Shown here in pieces: positions 14,236 through 62,387 of a DNA stretch of 64,000 nucleotides. The stretch comes from Amoebophrya sp. A120. Lineage: Eukaryota > Protista > Dinoflagellata. The stretch is from positions 7,184,989-7,248,988 of the forward strand of contig CAJINV010000005.1 of the NCBI GenBank assembly GCA_905178155.1, read 5' to 3'. Below the pieces are notes generated by a model. It saw only the letters and a list, made by a program, of their open reading frames with translations, was not told where the DNA came from and did not search any database. A program made the position numbers and the translations under genes. Position 1 is the first letter of the stretch; every line of letters starts with the position of its first letter.

Positions 14236-14325
14236 GAGTTGAGGCTGGAGGTCGCGGGAGTTGTTGGCTGAGGTTTCCGGAGGTGTGCGTTAAAATTTTT
14301 TGTTCTATACTTATCATTGCGCATT

Positions 14326-24200: not shown

Positions 24201-27200
24201 ATGTAGAGTTGAAAGCGAACCGTTCTGAAAATTTGCGATGCAGATTTGAGACCACCGCCACATGCTTATCCTGTCTGTCTTGCATAGAAAACAAATTTAG
24301 CGGCGGGTCCGTCGTGTCAAAAATATGTAGGCGATTTGTAATTCTGTAAGGGTTAGAGGGCAGACGTCTACCATAGGTGGAGGCGCCTACACCAAGAAGC
24401 CTGTACTACCTAGGCTTAGGAATAGGATCATCTGTTGATCACAGGAGCGCTTCATTTTGATGTAGTAACGCAGGGGTTTTATTTTTCACTTTGATAAAGC
24501 TCCAGCACTACTACAGCGGAATCTCGGCGGAGGAGTGCGAGCTGTTTGAGAAGAACCAGGTATCAAATGCAAATATGTCTGGGTCTGGAAGTAGAGTGCA
24601 ACTTGTAATGCTAACTTTGGACTCTAAAAAATTCTGTATAGCATGAAGAGCAAGAGGACTACTCCAGTTTTTGCTATACGGCGACGGCACTTGTCATGCG
24701 GGATAGGCATCAAGAAGCCCGTAAAAAACCTGGGATGCTAGGGCATGCATCACAAACATCATAGGTCATGCAAAATGTGCATGGCAAACGTTCCACTCTT
24801 CCAGCCTCAGACATATTTGCAATGCATACCAGGTGGAAAAGTACGAAACGCGATTAAAAATCGCCGAACGGGAGATCGAACTCATGGTGAAAAATGAGTT
24901 CGAGCAGAAATTGGCAACCGCGAGGACACAAATCGAGACCCAATTTGAAGCGGCGAAAAAGGACTATCTGCAAGCGGAGATTCGTGTACAGACGGAAAAT
25001 TACGAGAAAGACCTGCAGCAGAGGCTGGATGAAACGATGGAAATTAGGGAGAAGCAGTTGCTATGCTTTGCAAAAGTATCGTATTTTGGTAGTAATTGCA
25101 TTACAAAGTAGCTCAGCATGAAATCTGTCATGCAATTCTACCTTGGGATCGGGATGGAGATTTGTCATTATGCATGACTGCGATTACTACGAGCGCGATA
25201 TTCCTTTTGCACAGGATAGCTGCAGTCTGGCGCGGCGAAGAACATGGCGGAGAACGAGAAACAGATGGAGGAAACTTTGAATCAATGGAAAACTGCATAC
25301 ATTCAGGAAAAAGAAGCGGAGTGCAGAAAAATGCGGGAGAAGGTAACATGAGGCATGGTGGTCATGATCTCATTTTTGTCATTTGCCCGAGATGAACAAG
25401 ATGAAGAACAATTACTGATGGAGCAAAAGTAGTCAGCTAATATGATTTGGCTACTTTCCTCCACTGCACGCATCGCACACTGAAACTTGAATTCGCAAAA
25501 TTGTTTAAGATGATCCATGCAAATAGAAATACTGAAACTAAAGGTCGAGACCCACGTGGCAGACTTTACAGACGAAATGCAGAAGAAACTAGCGGAGATC
25601 AAGTCCCGCGAGGAAACAGTCGAGGACCAGCAGGCCGCGCTGAAATCTGAGACCGAGATTTTAGGTGTGGAAAAGACCGCGATGAGGGCTCTGAAAGACG
25701 CGTTTGAGCTCGAAAAACTTCACTTTGAAGAAGAAAAAACGGAAATGCAGAAACAGCAGCTGCAGAGACAAATCCAGGACCAAGACTCGTTTCAACATGA
25801 ACTGGCGAAAATAAAGCACGAGGAGGAGCTATGACAGTGCACAACTCCCCGTCGTTCTCATTTCTCATGCAAATCCCACAATTCCAGCTGCTCCCTTGCG
25901 ATTGCGTCACTGTTCTGCATTACATATTCCGGAAGTAGCCGAAACAGTACTTCTGCATTAGGCGTGCAAAAAATTTGCGATTTGTCGGCTCCACGTGTGC
26001 TGGTGTTTGTATTGCTGTTCATGCTATACAAATGAGGGCGAGACGAGGCAGAAGTTGGGCACTCTCATAGGAACAGAAGTGGAAGGAACGGAGTTTAGTA
26101 CTTCACGAGGAAATCGCAAAGCAAAAGGAGATATCCACCGCAATAAAAGTAATATCGGACTACTGCTCCGTAGTAAGAAGAAGAGAAATCGTATGCCAAA
26201 CTTTTTACCTTTATTACGCAGCATGAAACATAAAGACCGATGATGATTTGTATTTTTTCTGACCGCGCTTGTTTTTAGGAGAGCTCTGTGTCATGCGATG
26301 AAGTCATTTTATTTACACTTCATTGTTACTGCAAGGAGTGCGATGCTCCAGATAGATTACTTTTGCAATGCATACTAGAAATTGCAGATGGACTTCGACG
26401 AGGAAATTTTTCAAACGTATGACAATGCACAACTCCCCCTCCCCCTCATTTGTATAGCATGAACGGCAATGCAAGTGTCAGCAAGAGTGCCTGTTTTGCA
26501 TTACAAATCATTTGCGCTGGATTGTAGTGCTATTTGGGCTACCAGAAGTAGTCATGCAAACAGCTGCGACAAGCGGTACAGCCTGGATTTGGGATTTTGC
26601 ATGACAAATGAGGGGGAGGAGAGGTTGAGCAGCCTCATAAAACGAGGGAAAAGTTGAAAAACCAGTTCGACAAGGGCTTCAAAGAACAGTTTGCAAATAT
26701 CCTGTGTAAAAACCTCCCCACCGCAGAGTTGTCATGCAGATGATAAATTACAGGAACATTTGTAATGCGCACCCCCAAGGGAGGCATTTCCAATCGTGTT
26801 TTGGCATTTGTAATGCTGCTAACAGGATACGCAGATGGATTTGTGATGCGGTTCTCCTTGACCTTGCTCACATGCACTACACGACGGACTGCAACTTGTC
26901 ATGCGTGGCTCCCAAAGCTTCTGGATTTGTGTTGCTAAGTTCCCAATCATTGACTATGGGGTCGTGGGGACGTTTTTACATATGATAGCAAAAAAGGAAC
27001 AACAGTTGGAAAAAAACAACGAAATTCTGGCGAATCAAGAGCGGGAACTGCAGAAGCAATTGCAGATCACGAAGCAACAGCAGGAGAAAATGAAAAACTA
27101 CTGGCAGGAGAAGCAGAACGAAATGGAACATCAGGAGACGCAAGCGAAAGCATATGCACTGGAAAAGTAATATCGTGCTCGTGCTCGTACGAATTGTACT

Positions 27201-29616: not shown

Positions 29617-31032
29617 AAAAAGTGGTTTTATTGTCAGGAGTCCTGACAGGGCAAGGACTAGATCTAGAACTAGTACAACGACATCAAGATGAAGATGAAA
29701 TCCGGTTCTTGTACTAGAAGGCCCCGGTCGTCAAGATTGCACCTCGTCCCGGAGGAATCATTAGAGGGAAGGACGTGAGGTGGAACTTCAAAACTAAAGA
29801 TACTAAGTAAGACGGTGCTACCTACATTTGTCTGAGTCCGCTCCCGTTGTATTCTTCACGAGCATGAAGACCGTGCTTTTGTCAGGCAGCTTTATGTAAA
29901 ATGATTGTACGACAAGCTCGCAGGATCTGTTGAATTATATGCCCATAATTTACTGACATTCTAGAACAACTCAAAAGCGTCGTGCTCATCATCTGACATA
30001 GTATCCCATTGTAAGATTGTGCTGCTCGAACTTAGAGTTACATAAACGAAGTACTACTCGATTGTAATTAAAACAACATTTGAACAGAGACAGGCAAACT
30101 TAAACTTTATCCGTTCCCGACACGACAATTTGTTTCTATCACAACATCCTCGTACCATGACAACACAAAGGGCCAAGTGAGTAGGACTCACTCGTCCGCA
30201 GGAGCACCAGCAGGTGGTTGTAGTGGTTTGTTCGTTTGACATTGAAACAGTACGTTGGTACTCCACCGGTATACGGTACAAGTTGTCGTCATCATTGTTG
30301 TGGTTGTCATGCGCCAAGAATTATTCGTACGTCGTCGTGCAGGTACACCGGAAATAAAAGTCGTGCGTTTATTTCTGCGAACTCTTTCTCGCAGCTCGTC
30401 CTCGTACCCGTCACAGATACTCTCGGTATAGTACTCGTTAGTCGTTCAACATCATCTCAGTTTCTGAGTATCCGGTTGGACAGGTCCTACTCTTCGTCTT
30501 CATCCGGTCGTGCGTATTTGTCGTCTCTCATGGTGTTTGTTTCGTCCCTGTCGTGTTGTTTTATTTGTTGTGTCTTTCGTTCTCGTGGTCGTCTAGGTTC
30601 AATACCACCTCGTCAAATTGTCCAAGGACATCTTGAAGCGAATACGAGTGTATGCCTCAATCCAACTGTCAGGTGACTGCTTCTACTACTTCTAAGATCG
30701 TTTAGTTTGTACTCCATAGTACGCACCCCCCCCTGAAGAAGAGCGGCGCTATACTAGTAAGTATGTACTACAGCGAGCTTTTCTTCTTATTCCCTAAAGC
30801 AAACTTAAACTAAAAACCACTCTTCAAATTCGTGAGCGATTTTTTCTTTAATCGCGACTTTCAATTTTGGACAAATGCATCCTGCAATTTGCAGAGCAAC
30901 TGTGCCTGTTCTTTTTCAATTTACAGTACCGAGTGGTCGAGAATAAAAATAATTTTACTTTTTTTATCTCCTGCGGGCCGCGCATCTTCCAAACTACAAC
31001 TAGTCTCCTACTTAAGCAACGGCAGTACCAGC

Positions 31033-39340: not shown

Positions 39341-40256
39341 TACGAATTGGAAATATGTCTGGATCTGGAAATAACCCGTCGTGCTATCTTCATGCGGACG
39401 ATGGCAAGCACATGTCAAAGTCAATATAATTACGGAGAGCTTCTACTAATGTGCATGACACCACGTTTTCTGAAGTCCACTCGGTTGCTGCAGACCTCAT
39501 TCATGGTTGCTGCAAATTCCAAGCAAATTCCTAAGGGGTGGCACTTGAAAGGCAGGATGGCCAATAAACGTAGCCAGGGGCCTCGCCACGAAAGGAATCC
39601 GAAAGGGCAAAAAGAGAGCTTCTGTCTGTTCCGTCTGGCGTATTTGCAGGCCACTGGCGCAGAATTTGTGGCCCTTGTCGGGCCCCACGCGCATGGTAAT
39701 ATTGAAGGAGAGGCCTGCAGGGCTTCCGATTGTTATTGCCCTGAGAGCCCACGAAGTGTTATCTTGTTGCGTGTTGGCGCTTAGGCGCCCACTCCGGGTA
39801 TCGTTTCTGCCCCACGACACAATATCGGCCCACCTGGAAAAGAAGACACAGCGATACATAAAAGATACACAAAGAACAGCCGGGAGCCAGGGCTACAAAA
39901 CATCGCGCAGGTCTACTCAATGGGGCAATATTGCCTGGGCGGGGTACGCAGTGCCCTGCTGGCAATTTTCGAGACGCAAAATTCCACGAAATTCCGCTTT
40001 TACTTATCTCATCGGAACGCGTCGCAGTGAACTAATGTGCATGACGCCACGTTTTCTGAAGTCCACTCGGTTGCTGCAGCCCTCATCTGCGCATACAAAA
40101 ATCGCGTTTTTGCCTCAAAAAGGAGCACTACCGTTTTTGCGAAACATGCATCACACGTCCCAGCAGTTTTTTATTTCTGCTACTTAGTCCAGCGAGCATT
40201 AAAACGAAAAGTCTGGCATTCTGTCAGTCGACCCAGACACATATTTGCGATGCATA
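39341..40256. mobile_element. Expanded family A element carrying an insert
   Basis: DR gacca; internal 56-bp direct repeat 39445-39500/40031-40086. Confidence 0.8.
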
Positions 40257-40951: not shown

Positions 40952-43900
40952 ATGCCGGGCCTCGAGTTTCTAGCAGAGGACAAAAATGATCACGATATCA
41001 AATGCAAAAATGTCTGGGTCTGGAAGAATGCATGTTTGTCATGCTTGTCTGGCATGACTCTTAAATCTGTGATGCACGTTGCCCAAGAGCCGCACTTTTC
41101 TGCCATGCGGAGACGCAGTTTGTCATGCAGAATAGGCAACACCTACAAGCTTAGAAATTTGTCATGCTGAGCCAGCACTTGTGGCCTCCTCATGCTACGC
41201 CACTCAGCATCACACGTTTCCAGACTCAGACACTTTTGCACTTGATACACGATGCTGGTGATCAACATCTGCAAGAGGACGAGGACATTGCGCAGCAGGA
41301 TTTAGTTGAGAGGCACCAACTAGAAGAGGTGGACGAGGATCCAGTAGACCAGATCGGTAGTATGAACTGCAAAACTATCGTACTCGTATAAATGCATGAC
41401 AAATTCCCTCAGCATGAGAGATAAGATTTGTAATGCGGATGTACCTTGAGAAAAAAATTTGTAATGCATGATTGCAATACGAGTGCGATACTTTTGACAT
41501 GCATAGGTAGACAGCACGAGCAACTCCTCGGCTCGGCACAGCTATCGAATGCAAATATGTCTTGGTCCTCTGGAAACTTGTGATGTTGAGTGGCGAATCA
41601 TGAGGATGCCAAAACTGCAGGCTGAGCATGACAAGTCTCTGCGTCTCTAGGTGTTCGCGTTGTCTAATCAGCATGACAAACTACGTTTCTGCCTGACAGA
41701 GAGGTGAGCTAGGCTTTGGGCAACGTGCATGACAGACTTAAGAGTCATGCTAGTCGAGCATGATAGACTTTTTACATTCTTCCAGACCCAGACGCATTTG
41801 CGGTTGATAACAGCTGTTGCAAGACGACGCCCGGAGCACCGCGGACGAGTGCGACACCTCGAATGATCCGCACATCATGTATCGTGAGAAGAAAGTGTTA
41901 ACAGTGACACACGACTCTGATGCAAGACCAGCAAGACAGACAACCTCTGTCATGCAGGAAATGCTTTCCAGCCCCATTTCATGCGCGTTTTCCCTATACA
42001 GTCTGTGGCTGTGCATCACAAGGTTTCTTTGCCAGGAATAAGGCAACTTTGTGATGCTGAAACTGCAACGAATGTGTAACTGTAACACTTTTTTCCTGTG
42101 ATATCATGTTCAACAACCACAGTAACAACAGCATGTATCCCACGAAAAAACTCTTTCGCTGTGAACTTGTGATGCAGAAAATGGAATACAGAACTATTTG
42201 TCTTGCTACACCTGCATAGAGCATTGGAGGTTCAAGTGTGTTCCCCCTTGGAAAGCGCGCATGACAAATTTTCACCAGTGTTATGTGTAACAAACTTGTG
42301 ATGCAGATCTTGCAAAATCATCACAGTGAAACAGTTTTTTCGTGCGATAGCATGTCCACCGAAAATATGAACTCCACCAGTTCTGGTCAAAACTCGTCGG
42401 GTATTCTGAGGAAAAATCCCCCCTCCCCATATCAAAATGGAAATTTGTGTTGCTGCTTTGTGGTCACAAATCAGATTTGTCTTGCTGGAAGTGCTTGGCG
42501 GTATTTTCCAAGCCTGTTCGGGTATGCAGAAGGCTAGCAATCAGGCATGGAAAACAGGTTTACAGTAGTCGAAAGCGCATCACAGACTGGCTGTAGAATG
42601 CGCCACCGGGCTCCTATGACCCTATAGGCAAGACAAAGGCGATTTGTGGCCACAAATCAGCATCAGAAATTTCCATTTTAATATGGGGAGGGGAGATTTT
42701 TCACTTTGATATCGGGCACACCAACGTCTCACCTCGTCCACACCACTGGCGGTCCACTATCCTGTGCAAAAGTATCGCACTCGTAGTAATTGCAGTCATG
42801 CATTACAATTTTTTTGCTAAAGGTAAATCCGCATTACAGATTTTATTTCTCATGCTGAGGAAATTTGTAATGCATTTTCATTTATTATACGAGTGCGATA
42901 CTTTTGCATTGCATATCCACCTCCTTCTACCAACGGACCGGTGAGTGGCGGTGGTGGACAAGAGCTAGGCGCACCTCCACTGGCTCCGGGTGCCCCTGGT
43001 TTGGTTCCCGGAGCTCCCGCTCCTGGCACTACGACTACGACGTCCACGGGTGGTTTTTGGAGCGCGACTTTAACTTATCGTGTGCAAAAGCATCGTACTC
43101 GTACTAATCGCAGTCATGCAAGACAAATCTCATTTTCAAGCTAAATCAGCATGACAAATTCCGTTGGTCATGCTGAGCTAATTTGTGTTGCAATACTACG
43201 AGTACGATTCTTTTGCAATGCATATAGCTACTGCGGGCACAACTGTTGGTAACTCTAGCAGTAGTTGTTCTCCAAGCCTGCCCCCAGCGTCCAACTCGAG
43301 CAGTTCGCCAAGCCTACAACAACCAGGATTATACCACCAGCAGTTAGGTCCTGCTGGAGGTGCAGCGCAGGCGCACCACATGAGAGGCGGCGGCGGAGGT
43401 CCTCCGCCACTGCCGGGCGCGGGCGCGGCGCCGGGTGGTGCTCAACATCTTCATGCCCAACAACACCAACACGCTGGCGCAGCAGGAGGAGGAACTACTG
43501 CTGGAATCCCGCATCAGCAACACCAGCTACAACAGCATCATCACCAACAGCAGTTTAACACCACCCCCGGAGCAGGTGGGCCGGGCCCAGGCACAGGAGC
43601 TCCCGGGGGCGCTCCACCACCACATCTTCATGTTGCGCAGCATCAAGGAGGACAGCCGCAGCACCCGCCACCTCCAACGACGCATCATCATCAGCATCAA
43701 CAGCAGCCCTTTATCAAATGTAACAATGTCTGGGTCTGGAAGATTGCCAGGTTTGTCATGCACATTTTGCATGACTCCTGAAAGCAACTACATTACATCT
43801 TGCCTCACTTTTTTAAGATGGGTTTTTTCGTACTTCGGACTGTGCCATAGTAGATGACTTTACCGCTTTTTTACTGTTCTTTTATCCCTCAGCGCTGGTG

Positions 43901-46900
43901 GGTCTGCCGACAAAGTTATCCCTAGTACTCAGATGGCTACAAAGCTCATCCCGCAGCCGTCCCAGGAGCTCTTGTGACTGTCTCTTGGTAGTGATCGCTT
44001 TGCCCGTGCTTATTCCACTCAGAGTTTGCTGGGTAGGTGGCTACCGTTTTAAGTTTATAAACGAATGGGACGCCCTGCCCTTAGCCTTCCAACATGACTC
44101 CTGATGTCTGTGATGCATGCCCTAGCATCACAGATTTTGTGAGGGCTTCCTGATGCCTATACCGCATGGCAAATGCTCTTTCCGTGTAGCAAGACTTGGA
44201 CTCTATTTGCTGCGCATGCAATACAGATTTTCTTAGAATCCAAAATCAGCATGACAAGTTGGATTCTTCCAGACCAGACATTTTTACAGTTGATACCCTT
44301 GCTGCAGCCGCATCATTGTGCAACGCCGGGCAACGGACCCGCCTCGTCATCCTCGGGACCAAGGAACAGCGGTGCTGGAGGTAAGTACTTTTGATGTAGG
44401 ATCTTTGTTCATGTTCTTGTTCTTGCGTGCGACTGTGGCAAAAATTATCGTCTAGCACAAACACCATGATGATTCATTGTAGTTGGCGGCAACAATTTAT
44501 AAGCACGTCGACAAAGTAAGTAGGACGTCGACGACGATACGTATGATGAAAACAACAAAATTTCTACTTCAGTGTCTTTCCCACCACCCCCACTGGGATC
44601 TTGTTCCGCGGCAACATCCGGTGCACCAGCAACGACTACAACTCCGACGGTAATGCAGCAGCCGGGAAGCGGCGGCGGCGGGGCGGGGGGTGCACAGCAC
44701 CCGCAAGGAGGACCTCTATCCACAGTAAATTTATTCTCGTACTGCAAGTACAAAACGGAAATGCAGCACATCAAACTTCGTGGCCCACCTACAGCATGCC
44801 ACGACTTGATGTCTTATGCTAAGTAGCGAACAATCGAAGGCATGTTTTGTCAACATACAGAAAGAACCGCATTTTTTGTAAGTCTGCGGGAAGATTTCGA
44901 AAATAATTACTGTGGATAAAAACCTCACCAGCACCAGCATCACGTGACCAACATGCCGCCGCGTGGGCAGCCGCTCTCGTTCCGTGACCGAGACAACGCG
45001 GCCGCGGCCACGGCCGGCGGTATTTCCCTCCGCGAGCTGCGCGACAGGGAGATGCGCGATATCAACCGCAAATATCTCTGGGTCTGGGAGATGATTGTGA
45101 CACTTGTCATGCTAGTCTGGCATGACTCTGAACTCTGTTTTGCGTGGCCGCGAAGAGCTTCTCTTGCCTGTCATGCAAAATGGAGCTTCTCATGCGGAAT
45201 ATGCAACCCAGAACAACGGAAAAACTTGTCATGCTTGGCAGCGCATTGCAGTGTGCTAAGTATTGCCTTCCTTGCATCACAAGTTTCCAGACCTAGACCT
45301 ATTTGCAATCCATACGCGACCGGGAGCTGCAAATGCGGGACCGCGAACTGCTCAGCTTTCGCGACCGGGCGGAGCTGATGCGAGACCGCGAAATGGAACT
45401 GCGGGACCGAGAACTGCGAGAACTAGAGCAGCTGCACCTGCAACGCGAACGCGACCGGGAACTGATGGCCGGCGCGACAGCCGGTGGTCAACATCACCAA
45501 CAGCATCTACCGCCCTTGCACCAACGCGGCGGGCCTGCGGATCACCAGTTTTTTCCCCGGGACAGCCGGGACCTATGCACCGCAAAAGTATCGTCCTAGT
45601 ATAAATCGCATGACAAATAAAAATAATTTCCTCAGCATGATGAGAAATGAAATTTGTAATGCGGATTCAACTTAACAACGAAATTCAAATTTGTAATGCA
45701 CGAATACGATTAGTACGACTTTTGCAATGCATAGGACCAACAGCACAGCGACTTTCTGATGCACCGGGACCAACGAGAACACCACCAGTTACCGCCCTTC
45801 AGCTATCGAAAGGAAAAATCCCCCTCCCCATATCGAAAACGAAATTTGTGATGCTGTATTTGAGGTCACAAATCGACTTGTCATGCTAGAAGGCCAAGAG
45901 GCGCAGTCGTGGCCTCGTTTACAGGCAATTTGTCATGCTGTTTCCCACTCTCAGATGCCTCCTATCATGCTGAAGATGGAAGGCTTCCCCACGCCACCCA
46001 GCACTACAGTCCGCATCTTTTCCCGTGTAGCATGACAAAGCTGATTTGTGACAACAAATCTGCATCACAGATTTCCGTTTTGATATGGGGAGGGGGGATT
46101 TTTCCTTTTGATATCAGCAGCAAGTACGAGCACTCGCACCCGTACAGTCGCGCCGGGGCACCCGGGGGCCCGCCCCTCGTGCATCCGGGGAGCAGCAGTT
46201 GCGCGGGAGGCGCCGGTGGTGGCCAGCACCCCCCGGGAGGAGGAGGACCACCACAACATGCACCCCCCCCTTCGCATCATCATCCCTACCAGTCGGGCGG
46301 TCGAGGTATCAAATGCGAAAATGTCTGGGTCTGGAAGATTCTGAGACTTGTCATGCACGTTTTGCATGAGCCGTGATGTCTGTGATGCATGCCCTAGCAT
46401 CACAGTTTTTTTGCCGGCTTCTTGATGCCTATTCCGCATGACAAATGCCCTCTCCGCGTAGCAAAAAACGCGCTCCCTTTGCTGCTCATGCAATACAGAT
46501 TTTTTTGGAATCCAAATGCAGCATAACAAGTTCTATTCTTCCAGACCCAGACACTTTTGCATTTGATACGAGGCCCTCCCGGCGAGAAACCGTATAACCT
46601 GCTCAGGTGTTACAATCTCAAACGTTGCAATAAAATGTGGAAATCTGTGATGCAAGAAGTGCATGACCTCACCTACTCCCACAGAGTTGCGCATGACAAC
46701 AAGTTTCGGAGCTCTACACCGCACTAGATGAATCTGGCGAAATTTGTATTGCAGAAAGTGGATGAATTATGCTGTCCGGGTCTGTCATGCTCGTCATGCT
46801 ACACAAAATTTGCAACGCTTGAGATTGTAACGCTTGAGCAAGTCATAAACCGCTTCCGTCGTTTCTGGAGCAGGCACGGAAGCACCACAACTGCCACGAC

Positions 46901-49900
46901 TGGTTCGAAGTGCCGCAGAAATACTTGGGCCTGCTATGAAATGCAAAAATGTCTGGGTCTGGAAGAATGGAAGGCTTGTCATGCTTGTCTGGCATGACCC
47001 ATGATGCTTGTAATCCATGACCCAGCATCACAGATTTTTGGAAAGCTTCCTGATGCCATTTCCGCATGACAAATGCCCTCCTCGCGTAGCACAAATGTGG
47101 CTCCTCTTGCTGGTCATGCAATACAGATTTTTTTAGAGTCCAGAGTTAGCATCACAAGTTGCAACTTTATTCCAGACCCAGACATTTTTACAATCCATAC
47201 CTGCTGATCGGCCGCAACGGGGACGCGATTCGGCGGTACCGCCAGTTTGCCACGGAGCGCGGCATGAACATCATCGTCGACCAACCACAGAAAATTATCA
47301 AATGCAAAAATGTCTGGGTCTGGAAGACAGTAACCTGTGATGCTAAATCTGAATCATGCTAAAATCTGTGTTGCATGAGTGCCAAAAGCTGTCCACTTTC
47401 GACCAAGTTGGGAGGGGATTTCTCATGCACGATAGGCATGACAGAGACCTGGCAGAGTTTGTCATGCTAGGTCCCGCATTCCAGACCTCATGGGTCATGG
47501 AAAATCTGCATGACAAGTTGCATCCTTCCAGACCCAGACATTTTTGCATTTGATAAAAATGGCCCTGTCCCGGTCTGCCATGCAAGTGAACGGGGGACAC
47601 CTCATACGAATTGCAAAACTATCGTACTAGTAGAAGTCGCATTACAAATTTCCTCAGCATGAGAAAAAGAATCTGTGATGCGGATGTACCCTAAGAAAAA
47701 GATCTGTCGTGCATAACTGCAATTAGTAGTACAGTAGTACGAGTACGATACTTTTGCACAGGACACCTCACGCAGGCGGACTTGGAAAGGATGGGGCCCG
47801 GAACCGTCCACATCACGGGTAACGACTATCCTGAGTAAAAACGTCCCCACACCAGAGTTGTAATGCAAATCTGCATGCTGAAAATGTTTCTCATGCGGAG
47901 ACCCATGAGAAGCAGTCTCTCGTCGTGTTGTGGGATTTGTGATGCTAGAATCAGCATGATATGCTAGATCTGTGATGCTGCAGAACAAGCTAAACAGGAT
48001 TTCACTGCGAGGCCAAACTTGTCATGCGCAGCAGCAAAAGCTGACAGATTTGTCTAGCAGATTTCCCAGCTTGACTCTGGTGTGGGGACGTAGTTTTTAC
48101 TCAGGATAACGACCTGGCCAACATCATTTCCCTCAAGGCCGACATGCAACAGAATCTGTTCAAAGCCATTTCCACCCTGGACACGCAGAAGGGAGGCGGC
48201 GGGTCTGGCGGCGGGTTTTCCTCCTTCGGCTCGTCGTTCGGCTCCAGTGGAGGACCGGGAGGCGGTGGCGGATTCCACAACGCTATGCATTGCAAATATG
48301 TCTGGGTCTGGAAGGATGCAATTGCAAACTTGTGATGCGCATTTTACAACACGTAAAAATCTCTCATGCATAGGCAGCAAAGGTTGCCCACTTTCTGTCA
48401 CAAAAATGGGGCATTCGCATTTGTCATGCAGATTCGGCATTGCAGAAGCTTCTCGAAACCTGTTATGCTAGGGCTTCCATGCTAGACCTTCTGTGTCATG
48501 CAAAAGCAGCATAACTCTTCCAGACCCACACATATTTGCACTGGATAAACGCCTCGACCACCAACCCGCTGCATTCCGGGGGTTTTGCGATCGGATCCGG
48601 TCCCAGTTTCCTGAATATTGAGAGGAAAAATCCCCCCTCCCCATATTGAAAACGCATTCGTCTGAAAATTTGTGATGCAGATTTGAGGTCACAAATCCTG
48701 TCTCTCCTGCGGGAAGGCAAAGCCAGAGAGCCCGCCGCATTATGCCGGCGGTTTGTGATGCTGTTGGGCTTACAGCGCCGACATCTGTCATGCTAGTCCC
48801 CTACGTCAAAACCTCTCGGCCCAGGCTTGGCATCTGCCTGCAGTTTTCTCCAGCAAGACAGACCCGATTTGTGTACGCAAATCCAGCGCCAGAAACTTAG
48901 TTTCGATATGGGGAGGGGGGATTTTTCCCTTTGATATTGAACGGGCCATCGTTTCGAGGCCCCCGCGGGGGAGGACGCGATCCGCACTTGCGAGACCTAT
49001 CGAACGCAAATATCGATCTGGGTCTGGAAACTTGTGATGCTGAATGGCGAAGCATGAGGGTGCCACAAGTGACGGCTCAGCATGACAAGTTTCTGAGAGG
49101 CAAGGCATTGCCTACTCAGCATGACGAGCTGCGTTTTTGCATGACAGAAAGCTGGGGCTTATTTTATTGGGTAACTTGCATTACAGACTTGAGAGTCATG
49201 CTAGCGGAGCATGAAAAACTTGCATTCTGCTTCCAGACCACCCAGACAGATTTGCAGTTGATAAGACCAGCACCGCGACCACTTTCCGTTTGGTCCGTCT
49301 AGTGGCAGTATGCACTGCAAAAGTATCGTACTCGTATAAATGCATTACAAATTTCCTCAGCGTGAGAAATAAGATTTGTAATGCGGATTTACCTCAAGAA
49401 AAAAATTTGTAAATGCATAACTGCAATACAACGAGTACGATACTTTTGCACAGGATAGGCAGCTCCTTCGGCGGTGGGCCCGATTTTGGCGACCCGAGAG
49501 CTGGGCCTCCGATTGGCTTGGTATCCACAGAAAAAATAACCCCATCCCCATCCATTTTTTGCATGACAAACACAGAACTTGATACGTGTTCTGCATTACA
49601 ATTTGGATGTGGGTGGGTGTTTTTTCCACGAGGATACTTGGACCCGAGAAACTACGCCGTTGCCCAGTCCCAGCTCTTCAGTAAAAAACGCAGTTGCATT
49701 TATTTTGAATTTTATCCAACCTATTTTTTTCGATGGAATACAACAACCGTAGTTGTGCACCATATGGTGGCAAGCTGACCCAGTCGTGCATCATGTTTTG
49801 CGGTGCTTGTAGCTGAGAACGTAAAGTATAATGCGGATTAACAGACGATCATGCATCTTATAATTTCCACCACGACCACCACGCTCTACAACTGCATAAT

Positions 49901-51173
49901 TTTGATTGCAGAGATTGATCTCATCCACATGGTACTTCCTATTGGCGCGGCTCTCTGGTAAGAACTCTATCACAGCATGTCATCTGACACACACCCCTTC
50001 TACATCAACGACCACAGGTGGACGCAGTCGCACGGCTACGGGCACGACAGACGGTATGGGAGTGTCAGGATCGAAAGTGTCAAAGTTGAAAGAATCTGTA
50101 ATGCAAAAAACCGATACCAGCTGGAGCCCAGTTTGCAAGCGGCGCATGACGAATTTTGGCAGCATGGAAATCCAATCTGTCGCGCTGTTTGAGCAGAGAC
50201 GATTGCTTTTGTCGTGCTATTTTAGCAGCTCTATGTATAATCTCACACCCCAAACAGGCTTGTAATCGGCCTCAGTTGCCTGCTCTGCAAGACAAGCGCT
50301 TTGCGTCTAGCATTTTATGCATCACAAACTAGTTCAACTTTGACGATTTCAATCCTGACACTCCCATAGACGGCGACCGGCGGGGAAATCCGGGCGGGGT
50401 CGGTGCGGGAGGAGCTCCACCGATGCGGCAGCAGAACGGTACCGGTGGTAGTCACCACAACGTCAACGTGGGAGGTGTAGCTCCTTCTCGAGGTGGCATG
50501 CTGAACAACCCCAATCCCATGGGAGCCTCCGCTCCAGGCGTGCCGAGCCGGTCGGGACCTTACGGAACCAACAGTATGGGGAAAGCCGCTGCGCTATGGA
50601 TTGCAAATATGTCTGGGTCTGGAAGAGTGGAACTTGTGATGCTACCTCTGGACTCTACATAAAATCTGTATTGCATGAACAGCAAAAGAGGTGTGTTTTG
50701 TACTACGCGGAGAGGACATTTCTAATGCGGCTTGAGCATCAGAGAGCACTCGCAAAATCTCTGATGCTAGGGCATGCATCACAGACCTCACGGGTCATGC
50801 AAAATCTGCATGACAAACTCCTGCATTCTTCCAGACCCAGACATTTTTGCAATGCATATGCGCCCGGTGTCGGTGGTGGCCCGCCGAGTCACGGAGGTGG
50901 ATCTTCCCTGTTTGCCGGTCCTAGTATGAAACTGCACAACTCCCCCTCGTCCCCCTCATTTGTCATGCAAAGTGCCTAGTTTACGCCTTGGCTCTTGGCA
51001 CTGTTTGCATGACAAGTTCTCGCAGCCCCAATAGCACTACACTCCTGTCTAAATTTGTCATGCAGGAAAACCTGTATTCTTGCTGACGCTTGTATTGCTG
51101 TTCATGCAATACAAGTGAGGGGGAGGGGGAGTTGTGCACTTTCATACCTAGCTCTTATCCCGCAGAAACATGA
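40952..51173 (+). CDS. KH-domain RNA-binding protein with G/P/Q/H-rich and RD/RE-rich low-complexity regions
   Basis: Removing 27 introners and GT-AG introns 44381-44572 and 49681-49975 gives one ORF; KH motif FEVPQKYLGLLIGRNGDAIRRY...TVHITGNDLANIISLKADM (GxxG loop); TGA 51171-51173; start uncertain. Confidence 0.85.
40996..41247. mobile_element. Introner family A
   Basis: TIR; DR cacga. Confidence 0.92.
41361..41505. mobile_element. Introner family B
   Basis: TIR; DR ggtag. Confidence 0.92.
41543..41809. mobile_element. Introner family A
   Basis: TIR; DR acagc. Confidence 0.9.
41880..42103. mobile_element. Introner family G
   Basis: TIR; DR tcatg. Confidence 0.9.
42136..42349. mobile_element. 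Introner family I
   Basis: TIR; DR gcatg. Confidence 0.9.
42402..42711. mobile_element. Introner family C
   Basis: TIR; DR tcggg. Confidence 0.92.
42758..42915. mobile_element. Introner family B
   Basis: TIR; DR tccac. Confidence 0.92.
43076..43224. mobile_element. Introner family B
   Basis: TIR; DR taact/tagct. Confidence 0.9.
43712..44295. mobile_element. Introner family A with nested insert
   Basis: DR ccctt; insert 43782-44092 flanked by catgactcctga. Confidence 0.9.
43782..44092. mobile_element. Secondary insertion inside an introner
   Basis: 12-bp duplication; end GGGACGCCCTGCCCTTAG shared with 52033-52050. Confidence 0.75.
44381..44572 (+). other. Canonical GT-AG intron
   Basis: G|GTAAGT...TACTTCAG|TG keeps frame. 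Confidence 0.75.
44717..44918. mobile_element. Introner family H
   Basis: TIR TATCCACAGTAA; DR acctc offset by 3 nt. Confidence 0.8.
45060..45314. mobile_element. Introner family A
   Basis: TIR; DR cgcga. Confidence 0.9.
45574..45733. mobile_element. Introner family B
   Basis: TIR; DR ggacc. Confidence 0.9.
45804..46113. mobile_element. Introner family C
   Basis: TIR; DR tcagc. Confidence 0.92.
46307..46568. mobile_element. Introner family A
   Basis: TIR; DR cgagg. Confidence 0.92.
46593..46847. mobile_element. Introner, singleton
   Basis: TIR TGCTCA.G.GTTACAATCTCAA.CGTTGCAA; DR aaccg. Confidence 0.9.
46935..47199. mobile_element. Introner family A
   Basis: DR cctgc; splits KH LGL|LIGRNG. 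Confidence 0.92.
47296..47555. mobile_element. Introner family A
   Basis: TIR; DR aaaat. Confidence 0.92.
47605..47765. mobile_element. Introner family B
   Basis: TIR; DR cctca. Confidence 0.88.
47827..48108. mobile_element. Introner family E
   Basis: TIR; DR acgac. Confidence 0.92.
48284..48547. mobile_element. Introner family A
   Basis: TIR; DR aacgc. Confidence 0.92.
48616..48936. mobile_element. Introner family C
   Basis: TIR; DR ctgaa/ttgaa. Confidence 0.92.
48998..49263. mobile_element. Introner family A
   Basis: TIR; DR agacc. Confidence 0.9.
49309..49457. mobile_element. Introner family B
   Basis: TIR; DR ggcag. Confidence 0.92.
49522..49636. mobile_element. Introner family H-like (shortest, 115 bp)
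   Basis: TIR; DR cttgg. Confidence 0.88.
49681..49975 (+). other. Canonical GT-AG intron
   Basis: A|GTAAAA...TCACAG|CA keeps frame to the downstream exons. Confidence 0.6.
50055..50368. mobile_element. Introner family F
   Basis: TIR; DR gacgg. Confidence 0.92.
50595..50858. mobile_element. Introner family A
   Basis: TIR; DR tgcgc. Confidence 0.92.
50925..51146. mobile_element. Introner family D
   Basis: TIR; DR cctag. Confidence 0.92.
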
Positions 51174-51977
51174 TCGAGCTGTTTCTTTGTTCCAACGGAG
51201 TGCCACATTTGACAAAGTTCTTATAGAATGTGGATATAAATCTAGAATTCAAATAAAATACGCGCAACCAACACACCGCTCTTTGCAGGTACTTTAGTAG
51301 ATTTCAGAGGCATGACATTAGTGAGGTTTCGTAGGTGTACAAGCTGGTGAAGATTTACTGCTGCACAGCACCACGACCGCATCTCTTTTGCATTCATGTG
51401 TCATTGGTATGAGTAAAAAAGAGGATAAACTACATCCGGTGCTGCTACTTTATTTAAAATTCTGAGGTAATTGCTAGCACTCCTGTACTAGTTGACAGGC
51501 AACATGAATGCGTTGGCGTTGCGTCTTGTACACCAAATGTGGGACGTTGGGTATATGTATCCAAGAAAAATGAATCGGCGTTGGTAGTTCACGACGAGCA
51601 GTATAAGTATTCGCATGCTACGTTAGTACTCTCTCTACTTTGTCACACTTTGCATTTCCGAGGAATAGGAAAACAAGTATTCACGTAGTCAACATAAAGA
51701 GCATTTGCTCAGAAGTCTGTGGTGCCTCACAGATACTACACGGGAAAAGAAAACTTTACCGGATAAAGTTGTACTGGCGGTCTACCGTCATCACAACCTC
51801 TTGGCAGCATGCTTTTCTAGCACTAAAATGCACTCATGCTTTTCTGCAACACAAGTATGACTTCTGCTTTATTTTTTTACGACCTACCAGCGCCCATTTT
51901 TTTCTTGGATAGCCTTTATTTTTTTCCATATGATACCCCAGCATCATCCACCGCAGTAGTATCCAAAAATCAACTGG

Positions 51978-52148
51978 TATCCACAGGAACATTCTCATCC
52001 CCTTCAGTAGTTTTTGCAATGACACACACACAGGGACGCCCTGCCCTTAGTTTACCAACATGACAAATGCAGGCTTTGCTTCTTGTGCCCGGTGTTTTGC
52101 ATGAAAAGAAATTGCAATTGGATGGGGATGAGGATTTTATTGTGGATA
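51978..52148. mobile_element. Family H-like element with a short nested insert
   Basis: TIR TATCCACA..CTCATCCCC; DR actgg/cctgg. Confidence 0.8.
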
Positions 52149-53735
52149 CCTGGGACCACTCGTGCAGCAGAACTAGTAGGGTTGCTCAAGAGCAGAGTCT
52201 ATGTCCATTCTGGAGGCACGTGCGATAAGTATGCTCTCGCATTGCAAGAACTTCTACATCGACCGTTTTTGAAGCTATTTAGAAAACTTCACTTTATATT
52301 TTGCGTTGCAGTGGGGCATGCATTTATAGGACTTTCCATATTAGCCTTCCGCTAAAAACGTCACCCGTTGGCCGAGGTCGTTCGCGCAGGCACACCGACG
52401 TCGTTCGCGCAGGCACAGCGACAACCCTATCGGGAACAGCGCCGCAAGAAAAACAGCCGGCGCAGCGTCAGCGTCGTCACCACCACCACCTCTTCCTCCT
52501 CCACCACTTCTTTTTCTTCGTCCAATCCGGCGACCGACGGTTGCGACACGGATGACGCACGGTTTGGTGCCCCCCGCGGCGTTGCGACTTGCTCACAACC
52601 GTCGGTCGCCGGATTGGAGGAAGAAAAAGAGGTGGCGGTGACCTCAGTGTCGTCACAACCAACGCCGATGCCGCCGTTGCAACCGTCGCCGGGGCGGGGG
52701 CGTTTCCGGATTGATTGGAGGAAAAGATGATGGCGGTGATGATGAACAGTACTAGTGATGGGCAATTGCTGGCGCTGTACTGGCTGTTTTCTTGCAGCGC
52801 CGCTCCCGACACGATTGTGACTGTGCCTGCGCGATCGACGTCGGCCAACGGGTGCCGTTTTGAGCGGAAAGGGAAAGCGAATATTATAGGAAGTCCCACA
52901 AATACATATCAAAGAACAAACTTCTTGCACTACATCAATCTAGAACTGCCTATGGCATTGCGCCAGTAACAAATTCGCCAAGGGCCGCCCTTTCAAGAAA
53001 TTATTGCATTTCAATTGCAACGCGCGAATGCAAGCCTTCTGAGCAGTATAGCTCGCGCAAGAATTAGTGTGGCTCTGCCCTTGAATACATGCGGAATCTC
53101 GTGCAAGAGCTCCTCTGCCGTCAGAGTGGGATCGATTGAGCTGTTGCAGCTTGTGCAGTTACGTAAAGCAACTTTTGGGGCACCGGACCTAAGGACCACC
53201 CGGCCGGGTGGTCCGTAAGTCCGGTGCGGACCTAAGGATTAGGTTTGTGACCCTCCTCTAAGTATGCTCTCGCTTTGCAAGAACTTCCACACCAACAGTT
53301 TGAGTTTGTAAGAAAATGAGTCCCAGTCTGAGCGTGCATAACGACCAACCGGCGCTGCACCAGGAGGTTATCCAATCTGAAATGAAAATCGTGTTGTAGA
53401 CGATATTTCTACATAGCAAGTGGCCTTTATCAATCATCGAAATGGAAATTGTGATGCATACACAAGAACACTCGATCACCGGTGAGCTGTCCCCTGATCT
53501 TGACCATTTTTCTAGTCCTACTGTTTTGGAAAAGGTTTTTTATAAAGATGGACCTGGCAACACCAACATCATGAAGATGCGAGAACAGGACGTGGAGATG
53601 AACGACAACTACCAGAAACAATGTGGTCGAAAAGAAGACGCAGTATCAAGATGGTAAGTAGGATGACTACACACACAGCTTCCTTATTTCAGTTTTATGA
53701 CGGTGCACAACTACTCCTTCTCCCCCCCCCATGTG
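52120..53735. repeat. Segmental duplication copy 1 (copy 2 at 61845-62387), with a 1-kb insert
   Basis: Colinear high similarity outside 52259-53258. Confidence 0.85.
52325..52895. repeat. Long imperfect foldback palindrome
   Basis: e.g. TCCAATCCGGCGACCGACGGTTG / CAACCGTCGGTCGCCGGATTGGA; CCCGTTGGCCGA / TCGGCCAACGGG. Confidence 0.8.
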
Positions 53736-55378: not shown

Positions 55379-55640
55379 TATCAAATGCAAAAATGTCTGG
55401 GTCTGGAAGGATGCGACTTGTGATGCTGAATTTGGATTCTACAAAAATCTGTATTGCATGAACAGCAAAAGAGGTCCTGTTTTTGCCACGGCGAGGGGGC
55501 ATTTCTCATGCGGTATAGGCATCAGGAAGCCCTCACAAAATCTGTGATGCTGGAGCATGCGTCACAGACTTCAGGAGTCATGCAAAGTGGCCATGACAAA
55601 CCTCGCATCCTTCCAGACCCAGACACTTTTACATTTGATA
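55379..55640. mobile_element. Family A element, apparently non-coding context
   Basis: TIR; DR tgtgt. Confidence 0.9.
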
Positions 55641-58600
55641 TGTGTGATACGAGAACAAGGAGCATCCAGACCAAGACTACGATGTGTTTATGCTACGTAA
55701 AAAAAGAATCACCGTATTAAAAATCTTTCGAATACAAATGTTCGGATGCAGTACAGATGTGCACAAGTGCATGACAAATTTTCGTATGGATGCATGTTTG
55801 GCATGACAAGATTCGTCACAGCGTACTACTAACTTCTTGTGGGTACTAGTACTCGAACAGATGCTGGTGACTCTTTTTTTACACCATGATAGTAGTAGAC
55901 GGCATGCCATTGGAGTATGGACTGCTCAGAGAAGTTGGGGCAATCTCAAGTTTTCCAAATTTTGCAGAACTTCTTGTAGGAACAAGAACGTTGCTCTCTT
56001 TGTTTTCCGCAAATCTTCGAGAAGTACGTGTCATAATACGCATATTGTCATGATGATGATTGTCATTTTTGCATTACAGCTTGCATCAGCTGTAGTTGTA
56101 CCTAGTTGCGCGTCGTGCTTGAGTCGTCCTAAATAAGGTGTCTAGTTGTATTTTTGTCTTTTGTGCAACTACACACAAGCCCTAGCCGGATAACGACTTG
56201 CATTAAACTTAAAGATGGTAACATAGTACTTAAATAAAACCGACCTGTTTTCCCTTGATTTGCATCGTTCACGATCAGTTTGAGATTGTCCCGAAAAGAA
56301 ATTGACCCGGTGATACAGAACCCGCCACGGGCTGCTAAGTCGGAGAGCGGAGAAGCAGTAGCAGTTCGAAGAACTACCACGACGTCGAATTTGATGTATT
56401 GATGCAGCAGCAACCAGACAAAGAAGTCAAAAACATTTTTTTCGTGTTAGCAATAACTAAGTACGTTCTGCGTGTTGTAGCTCCAACATGATGCGAGATG
56501 AACCTGCTCATCAAGAAGAACCAGAACGGGACTCTGCGCACAACGTAGTTGCAGTTGTATCTCCAACCGTCGATGAGCAGCGTGATGAACATGTTGGCCG
56601 CAGGAGCGTGCGCTGCTCGGTTGGGCGCCACGCAACGCGCGGTCCCCTTGCCGGGCAAGGCCAAGGGCGCTAGGCCCCGGCCTCTTCCACCCGGCCCTGT
56701 GCCGGGCGGGCGGAGCGTCTTTGCAGTGCTAATGAGGCGCGCCCTTGGCGGGGGCAAGCAGGCTGGTGCCTGTGTGGCGCCGGCCCCCAATTTTGTTATT
56801 GCGCCCCCCTCGCCGGTGCGGCTGTCCCACGGGCTACACACCGGTGGGCCAACCTGTCCTGGTGCCGAAGCGCCGCGCCGTTTTTTTTTCTTACGCCAAG
56901 CCCCCCCGGTGCCGATGTTGTTGCGCCGCTTAGCGACCTTCTCCCAAATGTGTTCGGCATTGGGCAGGGCGCGTCGGCTTGCGTCGTCTTGGTTGGTTCT
57001 GCGCAGTCGGCTTGGCGGTGCGCCCTTGGAGAGGCCCCTCCAAGCGGGCTGCGCGCGGCCTTGCCTGGTGTTGGACATGCGAGCCCCCCGCCCCGAAGGC
57101 GGGCGAAGGGCGGGCTGTTGTTTGTATGCCTGCGGCCGTGCCGCCCCACAGGCATGGCAAGCTCCGTCCCCGCGGGGGGCCCCGGCCCGGCTGTGCGGGG
57201 CCACGGCCCCCGGCGGTACGCGCGGCGGCTTCTCTTTCGGTGTGCCGGCCGAGGCGCAAAAACACCAAAGACAGAGCCGGGGAGAAACGCTGCGGCCGCC
57301 GGCCCAAAGGAGGTGGCCCCCGGCCGCCCGGCCCCAACAATGCGCAACCCCGCCGGGGCAGCAGAAATATTCGCGAGAAGGCCGCAGGCGGCGCAAGCAG
57401 CCGCGCTGCCTTTTTTCATTCGGAAGATAGAGGCGGGCGGGGGTAGCGCCGGAGCCGCAACATCTCGCGCCCGCGCCTGTAGCATTCCCAAGCCCACGCG
57501 GCCCGGGCGCATCGCAAAGCGGCTCGGCCCCCGGCCCCGCGCCACCTAGTGCGCCGCGAAGGCAGGGGGGCGGGAAGAAACATGGCGGGGGGCGCCCAGG
57601 AAACTCACAAAGGCAGGTGCGGAATTGGGAGCGAAAGGGTGCCCGGCCCGCGGAATCTCTTCGGCTGTGCGCCTCGAAGCGGCACCGCCGTCGGCCGGAG
57701 TGCTCGGCATCGCCTGGGCCCCGGGCGCCTTGCTTGGCCCGGCCGTTGATTCTCGGCGGGGCGTCGCGCGCCGGCGCCGCCCCGGGACAAGATGGCGCGC
57801 GAAACGGTGGGCCCGTGCTGCAGGCCGCGCAACTTCAGGAATGGGGGCGCAGCCTGCGGCAATTGCTGCGGCTTTTTAATCACCCCTGAGTTGTGTTTTC
57901 AGGGTGATGCCACGGCTGGCTTTTGGTCGCAAGCCAGGTAGCTGAAGCGCCGCGACTGCCTTCGAATGGTTCGGGCCCGGAGGTCTCGGATAGGTTCCAG
58001 AGTCCTCGGAGTTGCGGCATTTTTTGCCGCGGAGGGGCTGTGCTTTGGCGCGTCATTTTTGTGGGCTCCCGGCGCGGTCGAAAATCGGTTTTGTAAATCG
58101 CATTTTGAAAATGCTTTTTCAGTTTTTTGTTTCAAAAAATCGAAAAACGAAAATGCGCGTTTTGTATTTTGTTATAGCATATCGATGAGCAGCGTGATGA
58201 ACATGTAATGTTGGCCGCAGGAGCGTGATGAACATGTTGGCCCAAGAAAAAAGACCCCCAGAACACGACCAACCCATCAAATGCAACTAGATGAACCACT
58301 CTCCACGACCTGAAGCGATTTTATTCTGCATCAGCACATTTTTTTATTTTGTTAAAAATACTGTGTAGTTTGTTTAATTTTCCCTTCTTTCACACGCCTC
58401 GGAGTGCGACATCTTCGCTGTCGGAAGTAAGCTGCATCCTTTTGAAAAAAGAAAAAACTGGTGAGCGAAACGATAAAAAACAAAAACATTACGCGAGCTT
58501 TGCACGCGACACTGAAGTCTTTTCTTGAACAAAAAAACAGCTTTTATTTTCTTTGGCAGGCAACAGTTGTGCTTTATTTTGCAGACTACAGTCAAATAAT

Positions 58601-59340: not shown

Positions 59341-60860
59341 TTAGCAATTCTCATGCAGCAAATCCTTGCACAGCTCTTTCGTCAATACGGTGCCGCTATC
59401 AAATGTAAAAGTGTCCGGGTCTGGAAGAATGCAACTTGTCATGCTAAATCTGAAGCATGCAAAAATCTGTGTTGCATGATTACCAAAAGTCGTCCAGTTT
59501 TGACCAAGTCGGGAGGGAGTTTCTCATGCAGGATAGGCACGAGAGAGATCGCGCAGAATCTGTTATGCTAGGTCCTGCATTCCAGACCTCGGGGGTCATG
59601 GAAAAGCTGCATGACAAGTCGCGCACTCTTCCAGACCCAGACCCAGACCCAGACACTACTGCGCGAGCACCCACAGGCTCCCAGGTGCCTAGCGCTTTGG
59701 CCAGCGTTGCACCTCGATAGAGCCTGCGGGACCCCGTGGGCAGAAGTTCATCGCACCCAATTTGCATGTTGCGCAAGTGATAGTATAAGTAGTAGTACTC
59801 AGTACCACCGGTGGACGCCATAGCATGCTTTTAGTCTCTCTCTACATATTATATCCACGTAGTTCTCTTCTCTTTTCTTTCTTCAAAATGTTAAAGTCGT
59901 TCTCTTCCCTGTGCTGTACCATGGTCTTGCTTCCAGACAAAACACCAGACATTTTTGCATTTGATAGCCCCTGCTGTTTCTGTCCTGAAGTCTGTCGTTA
60001 GTTCCGAAAGAAGAAGTTGCTCCTCCTGCGCCCCCACTTGAAGATGTCAGCGGCCCTTTGTTCTGCTGCAAAATCTCGGCTTCTATTCTCCGGAACAGCG
60101 GCAGGATATTCGCGTTCAGCTCGGCAATCGCGGAAGAATCCAAATTGTCCCGCATGGAGTAAAACAGCCGCTTTTTCAAATACACAATCTATGGAAGCGT
60201 CAGGATTGAAATCGTCACAGTTGAAATAGCTTGCGATGCATAAAATGCAACCCACAAAAAGCCTGTCTTGCAGAGTAGCCAAGGAAGGCAGATTGTAAGC
60301 CTGTTGAGGGGTAGAAATAGAGCTGCTAAAGTAGCAAGACAGAAGGCGTCTTCCTTACCCAAACACCATTACAAATTGGGTTTCGGCTCTTCCCAAATTT
60401 GTCATGCGCCAGTTGAAAACTAGGCACCAACTGGTATCCGTTTTATGCATCAGAAATTATTTCAACTTTGTCGATTTCGATCCTGACACTACCATACAAT
60501 CTCCGCTTGGCGTAACGTCGCGGAGGAAGACACAACTGCTGCTTGGTTGTTTATTGCGACAGAAGATGCAGTAGTGGTCCCGTCTTGATTGGCTCCAGTT
60601 GTTGTTGTGCTGCTGGAGCTGGAAGTCGAAGAAGTTCTGGCTTCTTTAGTCGTGTCAGCAGAACCCGCTGTTCCTGCAGTAGAAGACCCACTCCCTTGCT
60701 CACCGGACTGTTTGTCTTTGACCGCTCCTCCCGTATTCCCACCGCTTGATCCCGAAGCCACCACATCCGCCACCTTGATTTCGTCCAGAAACTGTAGCTG
60801 CCACCCCAGATACCGCAACACGAACATCTCGTAGTTCTGCAACAAGCAAATCGGGTTCCG
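59341..60860 (-). CDS. Hypothetical protein, 3' part, with a cyclin-box-like motif; 5' end unresolved
   Basis: Minus-strand frame restored across 60190-60496 and 59397-59966: PICLLQNYEMFVLRYLGWQLQF...QAEIVYLKKRLFYSMRDNL...RGTVLTKELCKDLLHENC*; ExxVLxxLxWxL resembles the end of a cyclin N-domain (inference). Confidence 0.6.
59397..59966. mobile_element. Expanded introner family A
   Basis: DR gccgc/gcccc; about 300-bp insert in the right TIR after (CCAGAC)3. Confidence 0.82.
60190..60496. mobile_element. Introner family F
   Basis: DR caatc; in a minus-strand gene. Confidence 0.92.
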
Positions 60861-61553: not shown

Positions 61554-61844
61554 GAACAGCAGAATGAGTCACAGAATTGTACCACCAGTAGCTGCAACAG
61601 TAACAACAGGCTCTTTTCAATGAAAAACAAAAATGCGGAGAAATTATAGAGGTTGACAAATTCCTCGAATCATTATATTTTTCGCGGTTTATTTTTACGA
61701 ACAACCTGTAACTCAAATACAAATTCTTCACCCACACCTTCGTGCTTTAGTTTTTGCATTACAAATGCAGGCTCCTACGTTTAAGTAGTTTCCTTTTCGT
61801 TTATAATTTCCGTCGTGTTTATTTGCCTGACATCAAGAAATTTG

Positions 61845-62387
61845 ATGGAGATGAGGATTTTTTTGTGGATACCTGGGACCAGTCGTGCAGCAGAACTTGA
61901 ACTAGTAGGGTAGCTCAAGAGAGTCTATGTCCATTCTGGCACGTGCGATAATTATGCTCTCGCTTTGCAAGAACTTCCACACCAATAGTTTGTGTTTGTA
62001 AGAAATGAGTCCCAGTCTGAGCCTGCATAACGACCAACCGGCGCTGCACCAGGAGGTTATCCAAGCTGAAATGAAAATCGTGTTGTAGACGATATTTCTA
62101 CATAGCAAGTGGCCTTCGTTCATCGAAATGGAAATTGTGATGCATACAGCACAAGAACACTCGACCACCGGTGAGTTGTCCCCTGATCTTGATTATTTTT
62201 CTACCGTTTTGATTTTGAAAAAGATTTTTTTGAAGACGGACCTGGCATCATGATGATGCGAGAAGAGGACGTGGAGATGAACGACATCAAGTACCAGGAA
62301 CAATTTGGTCGATGAGGTGACTACACACACAGCTTCCTTGTTTCAGTTTTATGACGGTGCACAATTACTCCTTCTCCCCCCCCATGT
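61845..62387. repeat. Segmental duplication copy 2 (empty site)
   Basis: Matches 52120-52258 plus 53292-53735. Confidence 0.85.

Follow-up and report, generated by a model that had tools for sequence, protein, structure and literature searches.

Transposon-targeting retroposons lacking long terminal repeats (non-LTR retroposons) are already known. In Xenopus, the insertion target of Tx1L is the non-autonomous piggyBac element Tx1D, and in crocodilians that of Tx1-Mar and SINEU is Mariner-N4_AMi, Tx1 being described as an animal clade (PMC4494074). R2 owes its precise initiation to 3′ homology (PMC10499050). In the dinoflagellate Amoebophrya sp. A120, introners make up ~17% of the genome; their ends are described as inverted repeats with a TAT start, seven variable bases and As, flanked by short direct repeats of 3 to 5 nucleotides (nt) (PMC7789003). 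Here we analyzed a 64,000-nt stretch of this genome (the window; assembly GCA_905178155.1, contig CAJINV010000005.1, positions 7,184,989 to 7,248,988) in which two TAT...ATA repeats each carry an insert. Together with seven copies from a related strain, the inserts are very probably left-truncated copies of one site-specific non-LTR retroposon family, moved by target-primed retrotransposition at the motif (T)TTG^CATGAC in introners.

The first insert (site 1) lies in an introner of family A.

43712..44295, no strand given: host introner, family A, loaded, with TAT...ATA inverted ends; CCCTT duplication at 43707-43711 and 44296-44300
43770..43781, forward strand: left copy of the 12-bp target duplication, sequence CATGACTCCTGA, with TTTG before it
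43782..44092, forward strand: retroposon copy 1, 311 bp, left-truncated; its last 290 bp are 71 to 72% identical to four longer relatives
43953..43963, forward strand: invariant internal block GCAGCCGTCCC, complementary to the terminal block
44067..44092, forward strand: conserved fixed end GGGACGCCCTGCCCTTAGnnnnCCAA, without poly(A)
44093..44104, forward strand: right copy of the 12-bp target duplication, sequence CATGACTCCTGA

The first-pass annotation of this DNA had described a 311-bp insert, a 12-bp duplication and a 261-bp remainder, and all three figures were exact. The 261-bp copy restored by removing the insert and one duplicate aligns end to end (79 to 85%) with intact family copies, e.g., 55379-55640 and 46307-46568. 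An 18-mer of the element end occurs twice in the window, against 0.02 occurrences expected by chance.

The second insert (site 2) is short and lies in a repeat of another family.

51978..52148, no strand given: second host, a TAT...ATA repeat of another family, no proven intron
52017..52024, forward strand: imperfect left duplication CAATGACA, with one extra A, then CA repeats
52025..52058, forward strand: retroposon copy 2, 34 bp, with CA repeats at its start
52059..52065, forward strand: right duplication, CATGACA
61757..61773, forward strand: unoccupied counterpart of the site-2 target, within a related repeat; reads TTTTTG^CATTACAAATGCAGGCT

The annotated insertion at CATGAC was borne out here, with an insert of 34 bp, but the duplication is imperfect on the left, the right copy being CATGACA. 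Since the left copy is imperfect, G^CATGAC at this site is a reconstruction, backed by the empty repeat at 61757-61773. Another copy of the host repeat with its right flank lies at 61839-61994 (85%), and the host is not spanned by any clear reading frame; it is therefore treated as a TAT...ATA repeat and not as a proven intron. A noncoding repeat at 52116-52271, 61839-61994 and 53259-53301 includes the host's right end and flank. The two window inserts are alike only in their final ~26 bp, and it is the related-strain copies that join both into one family.

These copies came from a metagenome scan with the bare 18-mer, a pattern that includes neither CCAA nor CATGAC. The scan returned 11 loci, of which seven (L002, L003, L004, L005, L006, L008 and L009), all from one contig series of a related strain, were retained. 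The other four (L001, L007, L010 and L011) had no CCAA, CATGAC or duplication and were rejected as chance matches. All seven retained copies continue as nnnnCCAA and then CATGAC at the same offset, and both window copies likewise end in CCAA immediately 5′ of CATGAC. The earlier statement that the inserts end directly before CATGAC thus holds for both window copies and 7/7 others; random sequence after other copies, which had been named as a contrary outcome, was looked for and CATGAC was found in its place.

The related-strain inserts are 44, 339, 501, 128, 771, ~40 and ~1430 bp long, and their target duplications are 20, 13, 18, 9, 19, 17 (one mismatch; 8 exact) and at least 15 bp (contig end). 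In the window, the inserts are 311 and 34 bp, with duplications of 12 bp (site 1) and 7 bp (imperfect; site 2). All nine inserts align at the right end and are shortened on the left only, from ~1430 down to 34 bp, and the duplications, 7 to 20 bp, all start at the same C. The fixed right end, variable left truncation and variable duplication length first noticed in two inserts therefore extend to nine. The same base is cut in 9/9 copies, and the cut is preceded by TTG in 8/9 targets versus 22/174 CATGAC sites in the window (p ~1e-6). Where a short junction could be compared with a longer relative, a microhomology overlap of 3 to 6 nt was seen in four of five cases.

Every copy lies inside a TAT...ATA element, and the earlier concern that others might lie mostly outside introners did not materialize. 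The hosts belong to three unrelated TAT...ATA repeat families, and the cuts fall 58 to 143 bp within them (58, 78, 91 and 143 within family A alone). Kojima's criterion for sequence specificity is that >20% of flanks are of one sequence type (PMC4494074); here 9/9 flanks are CATGAC inside TAT...ATA repeats. The five longer copies share 71 to 98% identity over the last 290 bp and fall into four subfamilies, and L002 does not differ from window copy 1 over the 47 aligned bases.

One filled site could be compared with its empty orthologue. L006 is collinear with window positions 25850-31162 (84 to 95% identity in blocks) and shares an introner with it; the 771-bp insert is present only in L006, and the window has a single copy of the 19-bp target.

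25918..25936, forward strand: unoccupied site within introner 25830-26069, with the 19-bp target present once as TCTG^CATTAC; orthologue of the L006 filled site

The target at this empty site is a degenerate form of the motif. Because the empty orthologue holds a single target copy, the duplication arises on insertion, and the insertion is younger than the introner; the comparison covers one case. That CATGAC might simply be part of the element, with no target duplication, had been raised earlier and is ruled out: the duplication reaches host-specific bases, and the empty orthologue is single copy. The strains differ at other positions as well. Introners 26698-26987 and 27509-27773 of the window are missing from L006, and L006 carries inserts near its positions 2112-2353 and 2401-2512.

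The window is rich in potential hosts. TAT...ATA repeats with inverted ends and 5-bp flanking duplications were called 57 times and occupy 15.2 of the 64 kb, while shuffled sequence gave 0 to 2 such calls. These repeats agree with the introner type published for A120 (PMC7789003). The introner duplications in the window are 5 bp, and excising an element with one copy reopens long frames, e.g., 382 amino acids (aa) across 40996-44295. CATGAC occurs in the window at a frequency of 0.0014 per position and strand. GCATGAC sites lie inside called introners in 105/144 cases and TTGCATGAC sites in 18/22, as counted with a caller that overlooks degenerate copies; many introner families carry the target motif as a subterminal repeat. 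Two oversized TAT...ATA calls, 39341-40256 (916 bp) and 59397-59966 (570 bp), are without this retroposon and could represent other nested inserts or merged calls.

The loaded introner at site 1 is cut exactly out of the transcript. Two assembled contigs (record 9 of run X3 and record 16 of run X6) match 43343-43706 and 43300-43706, respectively, plus 44571-44716, with zero differences. Between 43706 and 44571 they hold 83 bases and no other letters, equal to exon 44296-44378. The contigs lack 589 bp, made up of the loaded introner and one CCCTT, as well as a GT-AG intron at 44381-44572, and the frame is open. X3 and X6 are one sample, the RNA nature of the runs is guessed, and the junction is inferred from the match table and depth bins, the joint itself being unlisted. 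Since the introner is still exactly removed after growing from 261 to 584 bp, removal depends on its ends and not on its length or interior. The proposal of a safe harbour removed from mRNA accordingly stands for site 1 but does not carry over to site 2, whose host is no proven intron.

In DNA run X1, summed contig depth (which is no copy number) is 365 to 774 over window copy 1 versus 26 to 29. Along L009, the same measure runs from the fixed end inward as 2426, 1195, 558, 179 and 43, down to ~40 by 270 bp, with unique sequence at 23 to 38. This profile is as expected from 5′ truncation and would suit some tens of copies, most of them short, in the strain of the window.

The strand ending in CCAA is the sense strand of the host gene in six firm and two weaker cases. 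The firm calls rest on GT-AG introns plus frames for window copy 1, L002 and L008 and on long frames for L004, L006 and L009. The weaker calls are L003, which has a longer frame on the other strand, and L005, which lies at a stop or donor site; the L003 call relies on a likeness to acyl-CoA oxidase that we presume, and Pfam gave no confirmation. Site 2 is unassignable. The host introner of L005 (2256-2665) lies at GTAAG, which can be read as a stop codon or as a canonical splice donor. The bias is 8/8 (p = 0.008), or 6/6 for the firm calls alone (p = 0.03), and unoccupied GCATGAC sites have no sense bias (41 sense versus 51 antisense among 50 introners whose strand was assigned crudely). Transcription-coupled targeting or selection against antisense copies could account for it; L009 has two AATAAA motifs in antisense and none in sense orientation.

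The longest copy, L009, is 36% T and has no terminal inverted repeats or LTRs, its true 5′ end possibly lying further out. Blocks GCAGCCGTCCC and GGGACGCCCTGC, ~110 nt apart, are complementary and invariant in 5/5 copies across subfamilies of 71 to 85% identity, and pairing between them closes three of four sense-strand folds. From these letters, a structured 3′ end of the element RNA is suggested. A 1972-nt contig of X3 has 99 bp in common with L009 positions 925-1023 (10 differences) and runs on 1.8 kb toward the element's 5′ side, 1.4 kb beyond L009; it may be a lead to a longer or coding relative. In raw-read RNA runs X10 and X11, 0 reads fell on L009, which is uninformative as a test. The 18-mer had 0 matches in viral contigs and the 26-base end 0 in prokaryote genomes; a gapped two-block pattern hit 120 viral loci, none element-like by BLAST (E 0.01) and one with a downstream CATGAC, and these were rejected as chance. 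Two other element types were considered and set aside. A SINE (short interspersed nuclear element) transcribed by RNA polymerase III and derived from tRNA, 5S, 7SL or snRNA found no Rfam match and no A or B box by simple pattern in L009, which may be truncated and has 11 runs of at least five T. For a retrozyme or Penelope-like element, there was no Rfam hammerhead and no CTGANGA, the hammerhead ribozyme motif, on either L009 strand.

Target-primed retrotransposition by a site-specific element, as proposed in the first-pass annotation, is supported by the fixed 3′ end, 5′ truncation and anchored variable duplications. In such a mechanism, an endonuclease would nick the bottom strand opposite G^C, and the freed bottom-strand end would act as primer for cDNA, copied from the structured 3′ terminus of the element's RNA. 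Read-through CAUGAC in the RNA would probably pair with the primer, which would explain the invariant CCAA/CATGAC junction. The top strand would be cut 7 to 20 bp downstream, and cDNA synthesis would usually halt early, with joining via 3 to 6 nt of microhomology. The element RNA would likely come from host-gene read-through. As the motif is common to many introner families, most insertions would fall where splicing removes them, and introners likely serve the retroposon as a harmless landing pad, whether this habitat is an adaptation or a by-product of motif location plus selection. The 1.4-kb noncoding body is about evenly either the long 3′ untranslated region (UTR) of a long interspersed nuclear element (LINE) or a non-autonomous partner.

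Several observations weigh against this reading. A reverse transcriptase (RT) or endonuclease open reading frame (ORF), sought in the longest copy as the first-pass annotation had advised, was absent from the ~1430 bp of L009, in which the longest stop-free frame is 144 aa; Pfam matched none of six peptides, among them two ORFs of the element and two exons of L003, and L009 1-1500 had no Rfam match to E 5. No poly(A), tandem or simple-repeat tail is present, every copy ending in CCAA; such tails are common, though not universal, among non-LTR retroposons. Sense folding z-scores are −1.5, −2.0, −2.1 and +1.3 (antisense, −0.1 to +1.2), and the proposed helices show compensatory changes in 0/18 pairs, with 500/500 shuffles as high. 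The seven outside copies were chosen by an exact 18-mer and come from a single contig series, the site-2 host lacks demonstrated intron status, and the splicing evidence comes from one site in one sample of guessed RNA status, with the insert assumed to be in its DNA.

Other routes to the same pattern were weighed. The RT of the element might use nicks made at the motif by the introner transposition machinery or another host nuclease, with no endonuclease of its own. That the target is common to many introner families (105/144 GCATGAC sites in 57 introners) and that no element-encoded nuclease was found would suit this explanation. However, the cuts lie 58 to 143 bp inside the hosts, away from host ends, the base-precise first cut with its upstream TTG preference resembles those of site-specific retrotransposon nucleases, and the consulted part of PMC7789003 reports no transposase in A120; we regard such endonuclease-independent retroposition as distinctly unlikely. 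One-ended or rolling-circle DNA transposition of the Helitron/IS91 kind likewise leaves copies at a preferred site with one end fixed and the other variable, and the GC-rich block near CTTAG at the fixed end, the absence of poly(A) and the failure to see an RT are in its favor. All nine sites nevertheless carry a duplication of variable length (7 to 20 bp), which to our knowledge Helitron/IS91-like elements do not make, and the variable junctions show microhomology, so this route is very improbable.

The location in introners could also have arisen without targeting. If one or a few old insertions had been spread passively by the introners, every copy would sit in a multicopy TAT...ATA repeat, as is the case; such hitchhiking is refuted for the nine copies by the three host families, the family A offsets of 58, 78, 91 and 143, the differing duplications and left ends, and the empty orthologous introner. 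A weakly specific retroposon whose antisense or other-site insertions are purged from a compact genome would fit the sense orientation of all assignable copies and the AATAAA motifs on the L009 antisense strand. Selection may explain the orientation bias, but selection for introner location cannot give the same cut base in 9/9 copies within hosts of 150 to 300 bp, and as the main source of the pattern it is extremely unlikely.

A variant of target-primed retrotransposition, which we consider doubtful, is a promoterless retroposon that rides excised introner RNA and whose internal UUUGUCAUGC guides pairing with GCAUGACAAA in a transcription-coupled manner. Here UUUGUCAUGC would pair with GCAUGACAAA of nascent introner RNA or of the top DNA strand, baring the bottom strand for nicking, and the sense-only orientation would be explained. 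TTTGTCATGC, the reverse complement of the target, occurs three times in L009, with two kept in L004, and only 12/2000 base shuffles had even one such reverse complement; of the internal UUUGUCAUGC repeats, there are three in L009, with two retained in a 76%-identical subfamily. One sense-oriented target motif, 35 bp from the left end of L009, may be carried-over donor flank. If this variant were true, it would represent an RNA-guided, transcription-coupled form of target-primed retrotransposition, and it would point to GCATGAC as the functional signal read by the machinery, so far unexplained, for splicing or transposition in Amoebophrya.

Elsewhere in the window, a GPN-loop GTPase 3 gene at 18000-19800 is interrupted by non-canonical introns; one of its exons matches an Amoebophrya sp. 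A120 protein with 100% identity and 98% query coverage. A 15-bp repeat at 11189-11595 precedes ~2.8 kb of a GC-rich (72 to 76%) 32-bp tandem repeat at 11550-14340 with open frames on both strands, a GC-rich island (65 to 72%) at 56500-58000 is unlike neighboring sequence, and an assembly gap of 100 N lies at 7952-8051.

In the portions consulted, the papers on A120 introners (PMC7789003 and PMC12130899) describe no nested element at a fixed motif, and the letters of the element and its introners are absent from the supplements searched (one file of PMC7789003 and 12/14 files of PMC12130899). Family fam99 of A120, with five copies of ~800 bp and an automated 11-bp duplication, is labelled non-LTR (PMC12130899) and might be the present family, the likeness being one of description alone. 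None of the titles and abstract beginnings surveyed describes a target common to many introner families that are spliced out. Targeting at G^CATGAC would add mobile, parasitic introns, themselves removed from mRNA, to the safe harbours used by site-specific retroposons, as a new class. By converging on the one motif that introner families share, a second element points to a conserved signal that can be tested; its predicted partner enzyme would be an RT-nuclease specific for a short target that is new.

As proposed here, the family resembles R2 and other LINEs with a restriction-like endonuclease (RLE) in a precise bottom-strand nick, a structured 3′ RNA and junction-sharpening 3′ target homology (PMC10499050), and in co-transcription with the target (PMC4494074). 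It differs from R2 in that its target is selfish intron DNA versus rRNA or snRNA genes or microsatellites, and its noncoding 3′ part is at least 1.4 kb versus 248 nt in R2Bm (PMC10499050), the element being known here without its protein. Tx1L, Tx1-Mar and SINEU are likewise non-LTR retroposons residing in non-autonomous DNA transposons as independent 5′-truncated copies, with duplications of ~10 to 16 bp, noncoding partners and proposed transcription from flanks (PMC4494074). Tx1L and Tx1-Mar target one transposon family each and Tx1-9_AMi three related ones (PMC4494074). In contrast with Tx1L and Tx1-Mar, the Amoebophrya family uses a short motif across unrelated families, its hosts are exon-interrupting introns that are spliced out, and its copies lie in the sense orientation of the gene.

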